Shown here: piece after piece, positions 30,420 through 39,158 of the stretch | How the letters are laid out: the number at the start of each line of letters is the position of its first letter | Position numbering within the stretch: the first letter of the stretch is position 1 | From: Escherichia coli | Lineage (GTDB): Bacteria; Pseudomonadota; Gammaproteobacteria; Enterobacterales; Enterobacteriaceae | Length of the DNA: 64,000 bases | Direction: 5' to 3' (one strand) | Assembly: GCF_041248615.1 (NCBI RefSeq) | Contig: NZ_CP158426.1 | Notes under the pieces: model-generated | Database searches by the model: none | What the model saw: the letters and a program-made list of their open reading frames with translations, nothing else | What the model was told of the DNA's origin: nothing | Translations under genes and position numbers: made by a program

Positions 30420-31517
30420 ATGGCTGAACGAAGAAAAACGCATCACTCATGGAAAACCCGCCGCGATATGGTTATTCGCGGCATGACGATTAGTTTGCCA
30501 TGGTTTGCTTTTATCAATGTCAGTTTTGCATTGATAATTTTGCTGCGCCGTGTTCTGTTTAATGACCTTACTCCACCCTGGTTAAATGAAAAAAGCCTTA
30601 TACATTCTATTGATATATCTGCAACGGGTATTCTGCTGATTTGCAGTGGTTTACTACTCATCCCTCGGCAAAAAACATTACCTATCCAGGTGCTATTAGT
30701 TGCCCTGAGCCTGCTATGGTCATGGTGTAGTTATCACTTTATTGCGTACTGGACGCTGCAGTTTGCTTATCCACTATGTGTATTATTAATGCTTAGTGGC
30801 GTTGTCGCACTTTATTTCCATACCCCATCATTGCTCGCATTTGTCATTCCCTTATGGTTCACCACTCCAATAGCGAGTCTTATGCTTAATCAACAGATCA
30901 ATATTCATTTTGCTGTTGTATGGTGTATTTTTTCACTGGCGCTATATGGTGGGCGACTCATTTTGTTACGTTGGTTTGAAGAAGCATGGGTACAAAACAG
31001 TTATAACAACCAGTTAATTAATCGCCTTGATGCATTAGCACATCGTGATCCTTTAACTGGGATAGCAAACCGACGTGCAATGAACAGTATCTTACACGAC
31101 GCGATGGATAACGGCGGGTCATTTGCTCTTATTATGCTGGATGTCGATTTTTTTAAACGTTACAACGACACTTACGGGCATCCTGCTGGGGATCGTTGTC
31201 TAATACAAGTTGCCGACGCTCTACAGCGTTCAACTCGCCAGTCGGAGGATGTTGTTGTCCGTTATGGTGGCGAAGAGTTTGCCATCATACTTTTTAATGC
31301 AACATTGCCGGAAGCAGAGACGGTAGCAGCCAGAGTGAAGCAAGAACTTAAACTGGCAGCTATCCCACATCAGGCATCTGCTGTTAATGCATTTGTTACG
31401 GTTAGTCAGGGGATTACCTGTTCTGCTCCCGCAAAAACGGCTGAACAAATTATTTCAGATGCCGACGCTGCGTTATACCGGGCGAAAGAAAGTGGGCGAA
31501 ATCGATGGGCTTTATAA
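30420..31517 (+). CDS. Membrane-anchored diguanylate cyclase (GGDEF domain)
   Basis: N-terminal about 190 aa with multiple hydrophobic TM segments, C-terminal GGDEF domain with active-site motif RYGGEEF; start codon uncertain (ATG 30420 lies only 10 nt after a terminator; alternative in-frame ATGs at 30468 and 30483). Confidence 0.8.
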   Translation: MAERRKTHHSWKTRRDMVIRGMTISLPWFAFINVSFALIILLRRVLFNDLTPPWLNEKSLIHSIDISATGILLICSGLLLIPRQKTLPIQVLLVALSLLWSWCSYHFIAYWTLQFAYPLCVLLMLSGVVALYFHTPSLLAFVIPLWFTTPIASLMLNQQINIHFAVVWCIFSLALYGGRLILLRWFEEAWVQNSYNNQLINRLDALAHRDPLTGIANRRAMNSILHDAMDNGGSFALIMLDVDFFKRYNDTYGHPAGDRCLIQVADALQRSTRQSEDVVVRYGGEEFAIILFNATLPEAETVAARVKQELKLAAIPHQASAVNAFVTVSQGITCSAPAKTAEQIISDADAALYRAKESGRNRWAL

Positions 31518-31590
31518 GCATTAGGGGACTGGACAGATTACGTCTCTCCTCGCTTAACAAGGGCTGACGGAGGGTAATAATTGTCTATAG

Positions 31591-32142
31591 CTATCTTCTT
31601 AGCGATGTCTTTCTGGTATCACATTGGATCGGTGCAATTATTTTTCCTTTAATACCCATTATGTTAAGAAATTCAGAAACAGCTGTAATCTCATTGTTTT
31701 TTTCATTCGTCTTGATCTTCCAAGGAATCTGACTGTGCATTATTGAGAACACACTAATAACGTGAATCGCTCCCTTGCGACGACTCTTGTCATAAGAGTA
31801 CCGGAGCGTTTTTCCATCAATTGCAATGACGTCTTTATCATCTGAAGAATGGCAGTCAAGCATCCAGTTAATAAAGCACTCATGAAATTTTTCAGGACTG
31901 ATACAGGATACAACTCTGGCAATGGTATCGTGAACAGGAATACCATTATCAAAATCACCATATTGCTTCAAAAAATCGAGATGTGTTTCCCCAAAATCCT
32001 CTATATCTTCCCAGCCTTCTGCACCCGAAATAACGGCACAAATAGTCAACAGTAGAATATCCGATAATTTATGTTCCACTTTCCAGGCTTGTCTGTAATC
32101 GGGGATAATAGAAATATGTCCCATCAATTTTTTAAGTTCCAT
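31591..32142 (-). pseudogene. ISAs1-family (H-repeat) transposase, N-terminal fragment only (3'-truncated remnant)
   Basis: 183-aa ORF aligning to the N-terminal half of the second H-repeat transposase in this window (shared ...DYRQxWK...AEGWEDIxDFGExHL...GxPxHxTIARV...AIDGKxLR...); remainder absent; upstream end shares the ISAs1 terminal region with the other copy. Confidence 0.75.
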
Positions 32143-32727
32143 TTTGTTCTCCTTAATTATGTAAGGAGTATTTGATCATGTATACGCAATAAAAAACAGC
32201 TTCAGGTAATGAGGAATATCTCAATTGTTAAACATAAAATGCGAATTGTCTAGTACAAAAAAGCAGCGTTACGTGATCTTTCCGTGGATCGTCAAATTGT
32301 TCGAGAGAAAATACCAACATGATGGATTTTACTGTAAAAGTAATGTCGTAGTTTAAAAACTCATCATCCGGTAAAGCCTTGTGGGGCGTGGGCTTTCATA
32401 CTTTTACCCTGATGTCTGCTATACGCCGGACACCCTTTACGTAGCATTCGGAATTCACCCGTAAATTTATCACGGCGGTATCACGAAACCTCCGGTTCTG
32501 ATGCCGCTTAGGACTAACGACACGTCAACACAGGTTCGGGTTTATTCATTTCACTGTATCTCATATAATCTGAGCACTCCCCCTGCGCTCGCTACTATGA
32601 CTCTTTACCACAGCAACCGGGGTTGTTTGGGATCGGCTTTCAACAGCAGATCCCGGTGGCTATTGCAAGTAAGTCTACTTTCCACATCAGTGTTACTGAC
32701 ACAGAAAATAATGAGTTATGATCCTTG

Positions 32728-33213
32728 TCATATTTTTAATATAGCCCCATGAGCTATAGGATCAAAACCTTCTAACCATGAGGTGTTTTTATCGAATAAT
32801 GCACCTGTTATATTTATATCGCCATATCTATCACATAATAAATTAGCGCCACATAAGTCAGCACCAGAAAAATTTGAATCTTTAACGTCTGCATTGCAAA
32901 AGGTTGAATTAGTTAATATAGCACCCTCAAAGTTTGCACCTATTGACCTTGAATTACTAAAGTCACTTCCAGTGAAATCTGAGTTATTAAGAATAGCGTT
33001 CATCAGAGCCGCATTGCGAAAGACAGCATTTCTAGTTGATGTATGTTGAATCATTACATTTCTTAAATGGGAATTTTCAAATTTCGCCCCATCAAGACAA
33101 TAACCATTGAGGATGGCACGATGTAGATCCATCCCGCTAAAATCATATCCAGCAAGAGTGGTACTATCTATATCAAGAAATTTATTGGTTATTAAAAACG
33201 CGATTCTTATCAT
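32728..33213 (-). CDS. Pentapeptide-repeat protein, candidate Rhs immunity protein
   Basis: 161 aa with about 20 consecutive pentapeptide repeats (central L/F every fifth residue, e.g. [20 protein letters not shown]); AT-rich; start overlaps the Rhs stop codon (ATGA). Confidence 0.8.
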
Positions 33214-36200
33214 CTATTCCCCCAATCATCTAACTCCGGAAAAATTTGGCTAAACGGATATAGTGGTGCCGATAATGGACGCGTACCTGGCCGCTCAGGA
33301 GGAAGTTTATCACATAACAGACCCGCAACCATCCTGTGATTACCATTAACAATCACATTCCCATCCATATCAACCGGTGGTGCTCCACTACCATCTTCCA
33401 GCATTTGTACGTAGTGAGCTACTACGGGTACTGAGACTTTTTGTTGTACTGTCAACAAGGGACTGTTGGCCACAACCATCCTGATGTTTTCAGGTGTCGT
33501 AGGTAAACATTTAGTCTTCTCTTGACTAAAGGTATCATCCCACAATTTTGTTAAACCCATCACTGCCTGTTGTCTGTATTTATCCATGGGGTCAGCAATC
33601 AACCAAGATGGACCTGACTGCTCTATGGAATCTTCTCCGGAGAGACCCAACGGATCTATCTTAGTAGTTGGATTCAATGGATACTGATACAGGTTCCATG
33701 CACCTCTTAGCCCAATGGGATCCTGGGTGATATACCGCCCCTGCAACGGGTCATAGTACCGGTTGCGGTTATAGTACAGCCCCGACTCCTCATCATACTG
33801 CTGCCCCGGCAGACGGTACGGCTGTTGCAGTTGCTGCGCGCTGGTTTCGCCCAGCAGGTTTCCCCACTCGTCATACTCCCCCTGCCACGCCGTTTCCCCT
33901 TCCGGGCTGATGAGCGCCTGCGGCAGCCCCCGGTGGTCGCAGTGGTAAAGATGAAGTGTCCTCTCCGGGATGTATTCCGCCTCCATCTGGTTTTTCATCT
34001 GTTCCGCCGTCAGCCCGCACTGCTGAAGCCATGCCTCACTCTCCGCACTCACCGCACCCGCGCGCAGTTCCCGCTCCAGCCTCCCCAGCATCACCGACAG
34101 CTCCGCCGGTAGCGTCACCCCCGTGTCCTCCTGCAACACCTCCGCCAGACTCCGGTGCCGCGCCTTCGCCTGTTCACCATTCTCTGTTTCGATTCTGATG
34201 AGCGGCGTGAAGCTCCCCGGCTGGTATACCGTCTGGATACGCGTGGTGCCGGTCTGTACCGTCGTCAGCCTGTCACCGTCCCACCCGTACCAGGTCTCCT
34301 CCGGTTTACGCGACAGCGACATCCACCCCGTCAGGTCACGCTCCCGCCGCCACACCCGTTTCCCCGTCCGGCGGCCCAGCGGGTCATAGAGGTAGCGGCT
34401 CTCCACCTGTGGCTCGCCGTGCTGTATCCGCGTGTAGAACACCAGGCGGTGCTGGCTGTCGTAATGGTAGTGGTGCGTCCGCTCGTCGTGCATCCGTATC
34501 ACCCCTTCCGGGATACGGTCCGTCTTCTCCGCCAGCCTGCCGTATTCATCGTAGCGGTAGACATAGTGCGCATCTTCCGTGATGCGGTTATCCGGCCACG
34601 CCGTGAAGGTGCTGTCCGGGTGCAGTTCCGGGTCCGGCAGCCGGTTTCCTGCCGGGTCCGTCGCATACGGGATATCGATATCCAGGTTCGCCGCCGTGGT
34701 GTGAACGCCCGTCAGTCTTCCCGTGTCGCTGTAACGGTACTTCCGGCTCTCCTGCGGGCCGCTGATGCGCACCAGTTGCCCGTTATCGTTCCACGTATAC
34801 TCACGGTCAAGCTGCGGAAGGTTCAGGTGCCTGCTCCGGAGCTGCCCTGTGAGGGTGTACGCCGTGGCCTGTTCGTACCCCGCTGTACTGCCCGCCCCGC
34901 CGAAGCTGCGGGCCGTCTCACGGTGCAGCCGGTCCCGCGTGTACTCGACCAGCGGCGTTCCGCCCAGCTTCATCCCCGCAAGATAACCGCTGCCATACGT
35001 CAGCCACTCCACCGGCGGCAGACCGTCCGGCTCCTGACGGGTCGCCAGCCCCTGTTCGCTGTAGACGTGCCTCGTCTCATGCTCCCACAGCATCTCCCCC
35101 GTCTCCTGGTTCTCCACCGTCTGCCGTTCGCCCGTCAGGCGGCCTTTATCGTCATAGCCGTAGTGGACCGCCACACGGTGGCCTTCGCTCAGGTGGCTGA
35201 TTTCTGTCAGCCAGCCGTGGTCGTCATACTGCCACTGCTCCGCCGGGTCGCCGTTCACCGTCCGGTGCGTGATGCGCCCGGCGTCATCGTAGTACCACTG
35301 CGTGACCTGCCCCTCATCCTCGCTGCGGATGAGCTGCCCTGTGGCGCTGTACCGGTAACGCTGTGTCCTGCCGTCAAAGCCGCGCTGCTCCGTCAGCCTG
35401 TCCACCGGGTCATACCGGAACGTGGACTGGCTGCCGTTCTCGTTGGTCAGCACGGTGATGCGCCCGGCGGCGTCATACTCCATGCTGCGCGTCAGTCCGC
35501 CCTGCGTGGTGCTGACGGCCTTTCCCCACGCATCATACTGTGTCTCACTCCGGCTGCCGTTCGGGGCAATGATAGCGGTGAGGTCGCCTGCGGCGCTGTA
35601 CTCATAACGGGTTTCACGTCCCTGCGCATCCTTCTGACTGACCAGTTGACCACGCGGGTTATAACTGCTGTAAGTGCTGATGCCTTCCTCCCGGTGAACC
35701 GCCGTCCTCTGACCGTACCGGTCGTATTCATACCGCGTCGTGTACCCTGAACAGTCCGTAAATGCCTGAAGCTGACCGTACCGGTTTCGCGTTATTCTCC
35801 GCCTCACCCCGGTTCCGTCTTCCACCGCACAGGGCAGGCCACTGCGGGAAGAATCATAAAACCAGCGCGTAATGTTACCGTTGCGCGAGACCTCTTCCGC
35901 CAGCCTGCCCTGACGGTCATATTTCCGGCTGCGGCGCAGCCCGTCCGGGTACGTCACTGACGTCAGTTGCAACTGGTTGTTGTAACCATACCGTACCGTC
36001 CTGCCGTCCGGCAGTATCACTGAAGTCAGCTTTCCCGACGCCATATGCAGCCGGTACTCCGTCCGCCGTCCCGCCGCATCCGTCTGCGCCTTCAGCCTCC
36101 CCGCCTCATCATACTCGCTGCGGGTGATGCTCCCGTCCCCATACTCCTTCTTCACCACCCGCTTCAGGCCGCCCTCGCCCTCCGTGTACAGCACCTCCCG

Positions 36201-37421
36201 CCGGTTCAGGCTGTCCGTGATGGTCACGCGGTCCTGCCCGTACTCAAAGCGGTAGTCCAGCCCCTCCGGGTTGACCTGCTCCGTCACCCGACCGGTATCA
36301 TCATACCGGTAGCGGCTCTCCGGCCTCCCCGCATAATGGTGCGCCACCATCCGCCCGGCGTGCTCCGCATCATAAGTAAACCCGCGCACCTGCGTCCCGC
36401 TGCGGTCATACACCGCCCGCAGTTCTCCGCTGGCCGTGTACGTGTAGCGCGCCAGCGGCGCAGTCGGCAGTTCATCCGGGTATGCCGGGTCGTGTGTCAG
36501 CCATACCGCCTCCAGCCGGATACCGTTATCGGCACCGTACTCTGTACCGGTGGGCAGCGTGTCGGGGAAAAACTGAGAAGAGGAAACAGAACGGGGACTG
36601 GCCGGAGAAGATAAAGAAGACTCGCGCTGTTTACGGAAGGCTTTCGCCCGCTGCGCCTGTGTGGTCAGCGCCAGATGAAAACGGCGGCCCGCGCCGTCCG
36701 TCACCCCCGTCACCGCGCCCGCCGCTTCCCCCTCTGCCGCCCGGTGGAAGGCCAGCGTCCGCCCGAAGCCGTCCACCACGCCCGTCAGCACCCGGTATGC
36801 GGGCGGCTCCGGCGGCAGCACCTCGTCCGCCTCCGGCACCCGCTCCGGCCAGCCGAGTATCCACCACGGCCCCTGAAGGCTGTTTGTCGCCAGGTACACA
36901 TGCGGGCTTAAGCGGAGACTCTCCGGCAGCACCTGCCAGAGCGCGCTTAGCGGCTGCGAACTGTGCTGCTCCGCCACCCCGCCCCTTGCCAGCCAGAACG
37001 ACTCGCTGCGGCTGTAGCTTATCTCGCCGGGAAACAGCGGCTCAAAGTGAATGCTCCTGCCGCCACTGTCGTTGAGTATCAGTTCCCGCTCATGAACCTG
37101 TAAGCGGATATCGAAGGGCGCTTTCCAGCCGGGACCAAACACCCCCACCGGCGCGGGTGTCCTGGTCCGGTAGCTGCTGTAGGCGCGGGAAAGAATAAAC
37201 GGCAACGGGCCGGGCAGCGCAAGATCCGTCTCGCCCGGCAGCACCTTCGCACCCAGTAGCGGGTTCACCGGGTTACCCTTCTGCTCCTCCACCGGGCTGT
37301 TGGGACACACCGAGCAGGCCACTCCCGTCGGCGCACCTATCAGCACCCCCGCTGAACCCTGCACAATATCCAGTCCCTTGCGGGTCATATCGCCCTGTCG
37401 CGCCGCCGGTTTTCCGCTCAT
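33210..37421 (-). CDS. Full-length Rhs family protein (YD-repeat shell) with a variable C-terminal toxin domain
   Basis: 1403 aa; N-terminus [13 protein letters not shown]... and YD repeats closely resemble E. coli RhsA-type core; PxxxxDPxGL demarcation motif ([10 protein letters not shown]) followed by a 143-aa low-GC tip (33210-33641). Confidence 0.92.
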
Positions 37422-37831: not shown

Positions 37832-39158
37832 GCAGGGCGAAATCATGAAGGCCCGCAGCCAGCAAGGATTAGAGAAAGGTATTCATTCTTACGTCCTGCC
37901 CGCTTTTGCTTGCGTTTAATACCCGCTTTAAAGCTATTCTCTGCGGTCAGTAAATTCATCGCGATATGTCGACAAACTGCCAGATTTTCTCCCGCTTCTC
38001 CACGAACAATCTGGCATTCATCTTCCCGCATCCCCATATCAAGTCGCCAGTGCAGTTGATTTTCTACCGACCAGTGTGCTCGTGTTGCTTCCAGGAGTTC
38101 TTTCGCCGTAAGCGTCACCGAACTTATGTAGTAGCGAAGAATACACTTCTCTGATTTCACCGCTGTTTCTCCTTCCTGTCTGCTCGCCAGCACTATTCCT
38201 ATCGTGCTCAGCTCTGACCATTCATAAGCTAAATCACCCAGAGCGGTTAAATCATGGCTCACAATGCAGCATCGTGTATCTTCCCGTCCATGCCCTTTTT
38301 CCTGCGTGCTGTAACTGTCATACCTCTCACCCAGCCACATTGTCGGCGAGTACCCGTTATCAAACGCCTCCGCTAATTTTCCCTGATTTCCTTTCAGCGC
38401 CAGCAGGTAACCGGCTTTCTTTTTCAGAATTTCACGGGCGATTATATGCTGGCAACCCATTGCATCCAGCGTGACCAGACACCCTTTTAATTCCAGCAAC
38501 TGGAGCCGTTCCGGGATCGCCGTTATCTCATTCGATTTTGCCCCTGTTTTCACCTGCCCCAAAACCAGACGATTTTCTGCGCTAAAAGCACTGACCCTAT
38601 GGATCACGGCATTACGTTTCGATTTATCGTAAGTACCCCGTAATGACTTACCATCAATCGCCACAACAGAGCCTTCAGACAACGTGTGACAGTCCTTCAT
38701 CTACTGGATAAAAAGGGGCTGTAATTGTTTTGCTGAAATCATTCCCATCACTCGGGCAATCGTGTGATGGGAGGGGGTGCCATTTTCAAAATCACCATAC
38801 AGGCGTAACCATTCCAGATGCTCCTCACCAAAATCAGCAATTTCTTCCCATCCTTCAGCGCCACCGATAATGGCGGTGATCGTCAGAAAAAGGATATCCG
38901 CCAGGCTGTAACTGGTTTTCCAGGACTGGCGATAATCGTGAATAATTGAAATTTGATCCAAAAGGCTTAGTCCGTTCATGGTGTGCTATCCATCAAAAAG
39001 AAAGGATAAGATCACACTGAAATAAGATGGTCAAATTGATCGAAAAAAAAGATCAACATGATGGGTTTTACGATAAAAGTAATGTCGCGATTTAAAAATT
39101 CATCATTCACCAAAGTCTTGTGGGGCGCGGGCTTTCATGCTTTTTCCCTGATACGCTA
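37832..39158 (-). mobile_element. ISAs1-family (H-repeat) insertion sequence, about 1.3 kb
   Basis: Imperfect terminal inverted repeats atcatgaaRgcccgc at both ends; carries the H-repeat transposase frame; boundaries approximate. Confidence 0.7.
37843..38979 (-). pseudogene. ISAs1-family H-repeat transposase interrupted by an in-frame amber codon
   Basis: Two adjacent ORFs (92 aa and 285 aa) in the same frame separated only by TAG at 38701-38703; together they form a roughly 378-aa DDE transposase of the H-repeat-associated family. Confidence 0.75.

Follow-up and report, generated by a model that had tools for sequence, protein, structure and literature searches.

A probable relic of a class D group II intron related to E.c.I9 beside a truncated ISAs1 element in the rhsE region of Escherichia coli

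Introduction

E.c.I9, named after its entry in the Zimmerly database, is a class D group II intron of Escherichia coli that was listed as lying "in a Rhs region" and is full-length in strain ATCC 8739 (Table S2 of Leclercq & Cordaux, PLoS One 2012, PMC3522654). E.c.I2 and E.c.I9 both target the "Rsh IS (= ISEc1-5)", at two different positions, and fragments of E.c.I9 were reported with a length of 193 bp in O157:H7 and other strains (E.c.I9-1/tr1) and of 159 bp in BL21/REL606 (E.c.I9-tr2) (PMC3522654). In the same work one intron name was kept up to a divergence of 10% (PMC3522654). A search for literature joining H-rpt or ISAs1 with a group II intron yielded nothing useful.

The DNA analysed here (hereafter the window) is a 64-kb stretch of an E. 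coli genome. Within it, the interval between a putative Rhs immunity gene and a truncated ISAs1 element had been described preliminarily as a GC-richer segment with no assignment. Based on homology to a complete intron, the GC-rich part of this interval (32412-32659, minus strand) is very probably an internal remnant, no longer active, of a bacterial class D group II intron akin to E.c.I9. A fragment of the E.c.I9 family beside a Rhs-linked ISAs1 is of a published kind, and this particular variant and its breakpoints appear to be unannotated.

The rhsE locus and its features

The locus corresponds to the rhsE region of non-K-12 E. coli, and an identical, annotated RefSeq stretch is present in strain CFSAN061763. 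There the gene order is nhoA, yddH and pptA, an alkyl/aryl-sulfatase and a GGDEF protein, an "ISAs1 family transposase, frameshifted, incomplete", a pentapeptide repeat protein, an RHS element core protein, and a second ISAs1. Between 32142 and 32728, the RefSeq annotation of the identical locus carries no feature. The features recognized in this part of the window are collected in Table 1.

Table 1. Features at and around the intron fragment, in positions of the window
Feature	Position	Strand	Description
Internal fragment of a class D group II intron, E.c.I9 family	32412..32659	-	248 bp, 50% GC; intron nt 80-339, most of ribozyme domain I
Rfam RF01999 (group-II-D1D4-2) match	32552..32660	-	48 bits, gathering score 36
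Putative EBS1 loop of the intron fragment	32479..32488	-	UUUCGUGAUA; CGUGAU complementary to AUCACG of the ISAs1 left inverted repeat
Left-end fragment of a second ISAs1 type	32287..32411	-	125 bp; starts CAGGGTAAAAG; forms the 3' break of the intron fragment
Left inverted repeat of the H-rpt-type ISAs1	32273..32286	-	CACGGAAAGATCAC; homology of ISAs1 copies in 5098 genomes begins at 32286-32288
Truncated H-rpt/ISAs1	31591..32286	-	Left end, 5' UTR and first 183 codons; Pfam DDE_Tnp_1_assoc, E = 4e-34; PGAP "ISAs1 family transposase, incomplete"; 91.5% to K-12 ydcC
ISAs1 transposase remnant ORF	31591-32142	-	ORF list
AT-rich spacer	32660..32727	-	68 bp, 35% GC; directly after the immunity gene stop codon
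Pentapeptide-repeat gene, putative immunity gene of the upstream Rhs toxin	32728..33213	-	Pfam Pentapeptide, E = 1e-19; PGAP annotation; context, outside the relic
Rhs core gene	33210-37421	-	ORF list

The placement of the segment between the immunity gene, whose stop codon occupies 32730-32728 on the minus strand, and the truncated ISAs1 is borne out by both the RefSeq annotation and the ORF list. The preliminary description had reported about 300 bp of raised GC content, spanning 32416-32727 (47% GC). The rise is real and narrower than stated, being confined to the 248 bp of the intron fragment, with values of 35% in the immunity gene, 39% in 32287-32411 and 33% in 32143-32286 on either side. 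The left edge of 32416 lies within 4 bp of the true junction at 32411/32412, and the right edge of 32727 takes in the 68-bp spacer, which is outside the GC-rich element. Taken literally, the statement that the segment lacks ORFs of 60 aa or more is not accurate, as a mechanical ORF of 83 aa occupies plus-strand positions 32501-32752; it is antisense to the intron RNA and extends into the immunity gene. No Pfam domain matches this ORF, and neither PGAP nor the gene calls of 10 public assemblies include it. In K-12, including ydcD and yncI, which the preliminary description had named for comparison, nothing matches the segment. The ISAs1 part alone matches, with 91.5% identity to ydcC, and the intron sequence is absent from the K-12 rhsE locus.

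With respect to the H-rpt/ISAs1 elements that accompany Rhs elements (K-12 ydcC and yncI), the flank from 32286 downwards resembles ydcC and the adjoining 125 bp are the left end of a second ISAs1 type, whereas the GC-rich segment itself is not ISAs1 sequence.

Rfam matches were also observed at a distance from the segment. Two full-length matches to the Hfq-binding RNA STnc490 (RF01405), of 146 bits each, lie in opposite orientations about 38 kb apart on either side of the rhsE region, at 6760-6883 (minus) and 45328-45451 (plus), and this pair may be part of a repeated mobile element. A selenocysteine insertion element (SECIS_3, 84 bits) was detected at 10896-10954 (minus), presumably within a formate dehydrogenase gene, fdnG being located in this neighbourhood of the K-12 chromosome.

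A complete E.c.I9 intron at the same locus

A complete group II intron was found in strain 2014C-3061 (L002) at the same rhsE locus and in the same orientation, next to pptA, yddH and nhoA. It comprises 1887 nt and starts with GUGUG, and its domains V and VI match RF00029 with 61.9 bits, the match ending at the 3' boundary. The ltrA gene inside it encodes a protein of 440 aa with the Pfam domains RVT_1 and GIIM and no other significant domain. Strain O157:H7 (L003) holds nt 1-193 of this intron at 97.4% identity, and BL21 (L004) holds nt 1-159 at 98.7%. Because these two fragments match the published ones in length, strain and class D assignment, the intron of 2014C-3061 was identified as E.c.I9.

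Homology and structure of the intron fragment

The window fragment aligned with nt 80-339 of the complete intron over 260 columns at 83.5-84.6% identity (84.6% by megablast) with a BLAST E value of 1e-77, and carries one 12-nt deletion in one hairpin. The RF01999 match was obtained with E = 3.9e-8 in a 2-kb scan (31400-33400) and with E = 1.2e-6 in a scan of the whole window at gathering thresholds. Other Rfam matches in 31400-33400 fell far under threshold, as exemplified by RsmY with 15.8 bits against 57. At the homologous place, the intron of 2014C-3061 scored 92 bits in comparison with 48 bits in the window, and this lower score is accounted for by the domain I structure being only partly present, with the first hairpin truncated and another hairpin shortened by the 12-nt deletion.

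Covariation was detected in 16 of the 60 pairs of the family consensus structure, 51 of which are kept in the window. Compared with shuffled sequences, the minus strand folds with z = -2.25 and the plus strand with z = -1.36. The number of pairs kept and the residual fold are as expected of a fairly young relic. Nine of the 11 substitutions in paired columns keep pairing, all being transitions to or from G-U, and since such transitions preserve pairing about half the time by chance, this count is only suggestive as between decay and a separate functional lineage.

The remainder of the intron is missing. The 5' boundary GUGYG is absent, the homology starting at intron nt 80, and nt 340-1887 have no match anywhere in the 64-kb window. 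In addition, no RF00029 match to domain V reached the gathering threshold in the whole window, and the reverse transcriptase/maturase gene of domain IV is likewise absent from it. With its 5' splice site, its domains II-VI and the gene for the reverse transcriptase all missing, the fragment is unable to splice or move.

The window copy shares with E.c.I9 the homology over nt 80-339, the rhsE locus, the orientation relative to H-rpt/ISAs1 and the domain I fold. It differs in being about 15% divergent, in having lost both ends where the published fragments retain the 5' terminus (nt 1-193 and nt 1-159), in having the 12-nt hairpin deletion, and in showing the EBS1 loop UCGUGAU instead of UGAUGAU. 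Considering that an identity of about 84% lies outside the 10% naming rule, the window fragment is regarded as a sister variant and not as E.c.I9 proper.

Distribution among genomes

Of 5426 complete E. coli genomes searched by megablast, 144 carry the segment with an identity of at least 99%, in every case at this locus, and a further 42 genomes, 2014C-3061 among them, match at 84.6%, exactly over 32412-32659. The segment is nearly invariant among the 144 carriers, which are close relatives, so that this invariance is uninformative on selection. Sequence related to E.c.I9 occurs in 2702 of the 5426 genomes, and at least 80% of the intron in just 84 of them. No full-length copy of the window variant was found in the 5426 genomes, and the PLSDB plasmids gave nothing closer. 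A scan of 100,044 species representatives with a conserved 31-base pattern returned only relatives of about 70% identity to the window fragment (Xenorhabdus, Photorhabdus and two MAGs), and the parent lineage of the window variant is one that we infer rather than observe.

All E. coli BLAST matches begin at 32659, as if thousands of genomes had a recombination hotspot in common. Such a hotspot was rejected, however, because the introns of O157:H7 and BL21 run 5' to GUGUG; the common boundary arises from the query, whose own intron homology starts there.

A related intron in the ISAs1 transposase gene

A second class D intron, in strain SCU-313 (L005), interrupts the ISAs1 transposase ORF after ...CTGGACG. 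It belongs to the same subfamily (about 70% identity in domain I to the window fragment, and 69% to E.c.I9 over the whole intron) and likewise homes into ISAs1/H-rpt elements. In contrast to E.c.I9, its target lies inside the transposase ORF (...CTGGACG|) and not in the left inverted repeat, and its divergence from the window fragment is far greater than that of E.c.I9. This intron is probably E.c.I2, the name following from the statement that E.c.I2 and E.c.I9 use different positions of the Rhs IS (PMC3522654).

A 2089-bp contig of a Collinsella sp. MAG (JAIJJM010000585.1, L012) gave BLAST statistics identical to those of the SCU-313 intron, each being 69.067% identical to E.c.I9 over 1875 columns and 70.588% identical to the window fragment over 255 columns. 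This suggests the same or a near-identical intron, possibly through E. coli contamination of the metagenome bin.

Homing site and EBS1 loop

The terminal repeats of the H-rpt-type ISAs1, read from the ends of intact copies at the loci of O157:H7, BL21 and SCU-313, are CAGGGAAAGATCAC on the left (IRL) and CAGGGCAAGATTAC on the right (IRR). The junctions in 2014C-3061, O157:H7 and BL21 place the insertion point of E.c.I9 just inside the left repeat, after CAGGGAAAGATCA(C/T)(C)G. In the window, the corresponding homing site is unoccupied and lies after ...GATCACG, between 32272 and 32271.

In an alignment of six family members, a hairpin loop in columns 189-198 behaves as EBS1. In the SCU-313 intron, this loop contains CGUCCAG, which is fully complementary to the final 7 nt of the 5' exon of that intron, and in E.c.I9 it contains UGAUGAU, which pairs with the 7 nt (AUCAUCG) that end the exon in O157. 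By position in this alignment and by complementarity, the window loop would be the EBS1 of the variant, and the unoccupied canonical repeat copy lies about 200 bp downstream of it. The window loop would be consistent with an intron that was once active and whose target register differed slightly. Like the copies in 2014C-3061, O157:H7 and BL21, the fragment is situated upstream of an ISAs1 and in the same orientation; its own 5' exon junction, from which the original insertion site would be read, is lost.

In 2014C-3061, E.c.I9 sits in an ISAs1 left end (positions 6341-6354 and 4453-4300 of that locus), the body of the IS being deleted soon after the 5' UTR, where a remnant of pptA is joined on. 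Between the EBS1 loop of this copy and its 5' exon (GATCACG), no stretch of at least 5 consecutive pairs can be formed, and the copy may no longer be in a cognate site.

Breakpoints and layers of ISAs1

The 125 bp that abut the 3' end of the intron fragment are 83.5% identical to 39026-39152, a sequence that precedes the other ISAs1 transposase gene by 47 bp and belongs to the ISAs1 type present upstream of the Rhs gene. The left end common to the two copies starts at CAGGG (at 32411 and 39152, respectively). Two different ISAs1 types are nested here, the 125 bp standing immediately before the left inverted repeat of the H-rpt type. The 3' break of the intron therefore coincides with an IS terminus, which points to an ISAs1 insertion into the intron or to recombination at the IS end. 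In O157:H7, three partial or complete left ends beginning with CAGGG are stacked before the intron fragment (positions 3875-3921 of that locus), and ISAs1 left ends seem to pile up at the rhsE locus.

A relative of the window locus (L019) has the same left side with the H-rpt ISAs1 intact. A simple insertion of the IS into the intron with both halves kept was considered and is not seen, because the right flank of the IS in this relative is an unrelated AT-rich ORF and the rest of the intron is absent from the window; the other halves have been lost. In the same relative (positions 4623-5218), the intact ISAs1 is followed by a 211-aa AT-rich ORF and yddH in place of the sulfatase-GGDEF segment. 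The ISAs1 of the window is truncated at about 31591 (31518-31600) and adjoins the GGDEF (MASE5) and alkyl-sulfatase genes. As the relative differs at this point, the presence or absence of the sulfatase-GGDEF segment constitutes a second structural polymorphism at the locus.

On the other side of the fragment, the 68-bp spacer was found only in 143-144 genomes with this toxin/immunity cassette and matches the cassette in composition, so it is probably the 3' flank of the cassette. The spacer was also considered as a decayed 5' end of the intron. This candidate was discarded, as the global alignments of the 68 bp to nt 1-80 of E.c.I9 and of the SCU-313 intron were at the level of shuffled sequence, 91 and 39 of 1000 shuffles, respectively, reaching the observed score.

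Proposed history of the relic

The parent element would have consisted of a ribozyme and a reverse transcriptase/maturase gene and would have retrohomed into the left terminal inverted repeat of a Rhs-associated H-rpt/ISAs1, with the EBS1 loop of domain I pairing with the ...GATCACG end of that repeat. Nucleotides 80-339 alone survive in this lineage, the remainder being lost. For the 3' side, the break at CAGGG may go back either to an ISAs1 that inserted into the intron or to recombination at the end of an IS, and the second ISAs1 would have landed 125 bp further in, inside the first ISAs1. On the 5' side, intron nt 80 is joined to the 68 bp of AT-rich DNA that probably came with the toxin/immunity cassette. 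The fragment is probably co-transcribed with the rhs-immunity unit, in whose 3' region it most likely does nothing but ride.

Alternative explanations

One competitor of the intron reading is chance: the segment could be plain spacer DNA, with its GC content and Rfam match being accidental, and the 48 bits in the window are indeed well under the 92 bits of the intact relative. This deficit, however, goes back to the truncation of the first hairpin and to the 12-nt deletion, the BLAST homology to a complete intron is independent of the Rfam match, and the breakpoints coincide with IS termini, so that plain spacer is refuted and has practically no chance of being correct. The first candidate named in the preliminary description was an orphan, a toxin-tip or immunity fragment of a Rhs system that recombination had displaced. 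Orphans of this sort are frequent downstream of Rhs genes, 2014C-3061 has several partial Rhs genes accompanied by small ORFs at the same locus, and the 68-bp spacer has a cassette-like composition. Nevertheless, 248 of the 312 bp are homologous to an intron ribozyme, no similarity to Rhs tips or immunity genes was found, and the 83-aa ORF, the only one present, has the character described above. A query with the toxin/immunity cassette across E. coli gave no second copy of the downstream sequence, and the 68 bp are too short for a recognizable gene fragment. An orphan is thus exceedingly unlikely, and for 32412-32659 it is effectively refuted. The broader idea of a recombination remnant in a Rhs locus survives insofar as the segment is a relic with relatives typical of Rhs/H-rpt regions, and the specific candidates proposed for it were wrong.

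The preliminary description had also raised a small RNA or regulatory region. A functional small RNA or a cis-regulatory 3' UTR element might have been co-opted from the domain I fold, for instance stabilizing the rhs-immunity transcript or pairing with the mRNA or the DNA ends of the ISAs1 transposase. Consistent with this, the minus strand is moderately structured, the putative EBS1 complements the adjacent repeat, and the fragment directly follows the immunity gene on its strand, no terminator-like site intervening. Within 32050-32850, however, sites resembling promoters or terminators were no commoner than in shuffled sequence, and both the structure and the complementarity came with the intron, making a new function unnecessary. 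Moreover, E.c.I9-family relics elsewhere end at 43, 147, 159, 193 and 460 nt, and such variation among equivalent relics (193, 159, 147 and 460 bp) is what random decay predicts and argues for decay rather than a conserved functional module. A functional RNA is therefore very unlikely. In one specific form of this reading, the domain I piece would be the 3' tail of the rhs-immunity message and act as a riboregulator, its CGUGAU loop pairing with AUCACG of the ISAs1 left end and modulating the neighbouring transposase, or the piece stabilizing the toxin-immunity transcript; this form is highly unlikely.

Significance

With the intron fragment, a stretch of 144 complete E. coli genomes that carried no annotation is now assigned, which is mostly of housekeeping value and has no bearing on the diversity of Rhs toxins and immunity proteins. 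The "spacer" between the Rhs immunity gene and H-rpt/ISAs1 is layered debris of mobile elements, composed of an intron fragment, an IS end and a truncated IS. For the published extinction of group II introns in Enterobacteria, the locus provides one more data point, in which a sister variant about 15% diverged from E.c.I9 is left as a 248-bp relic.
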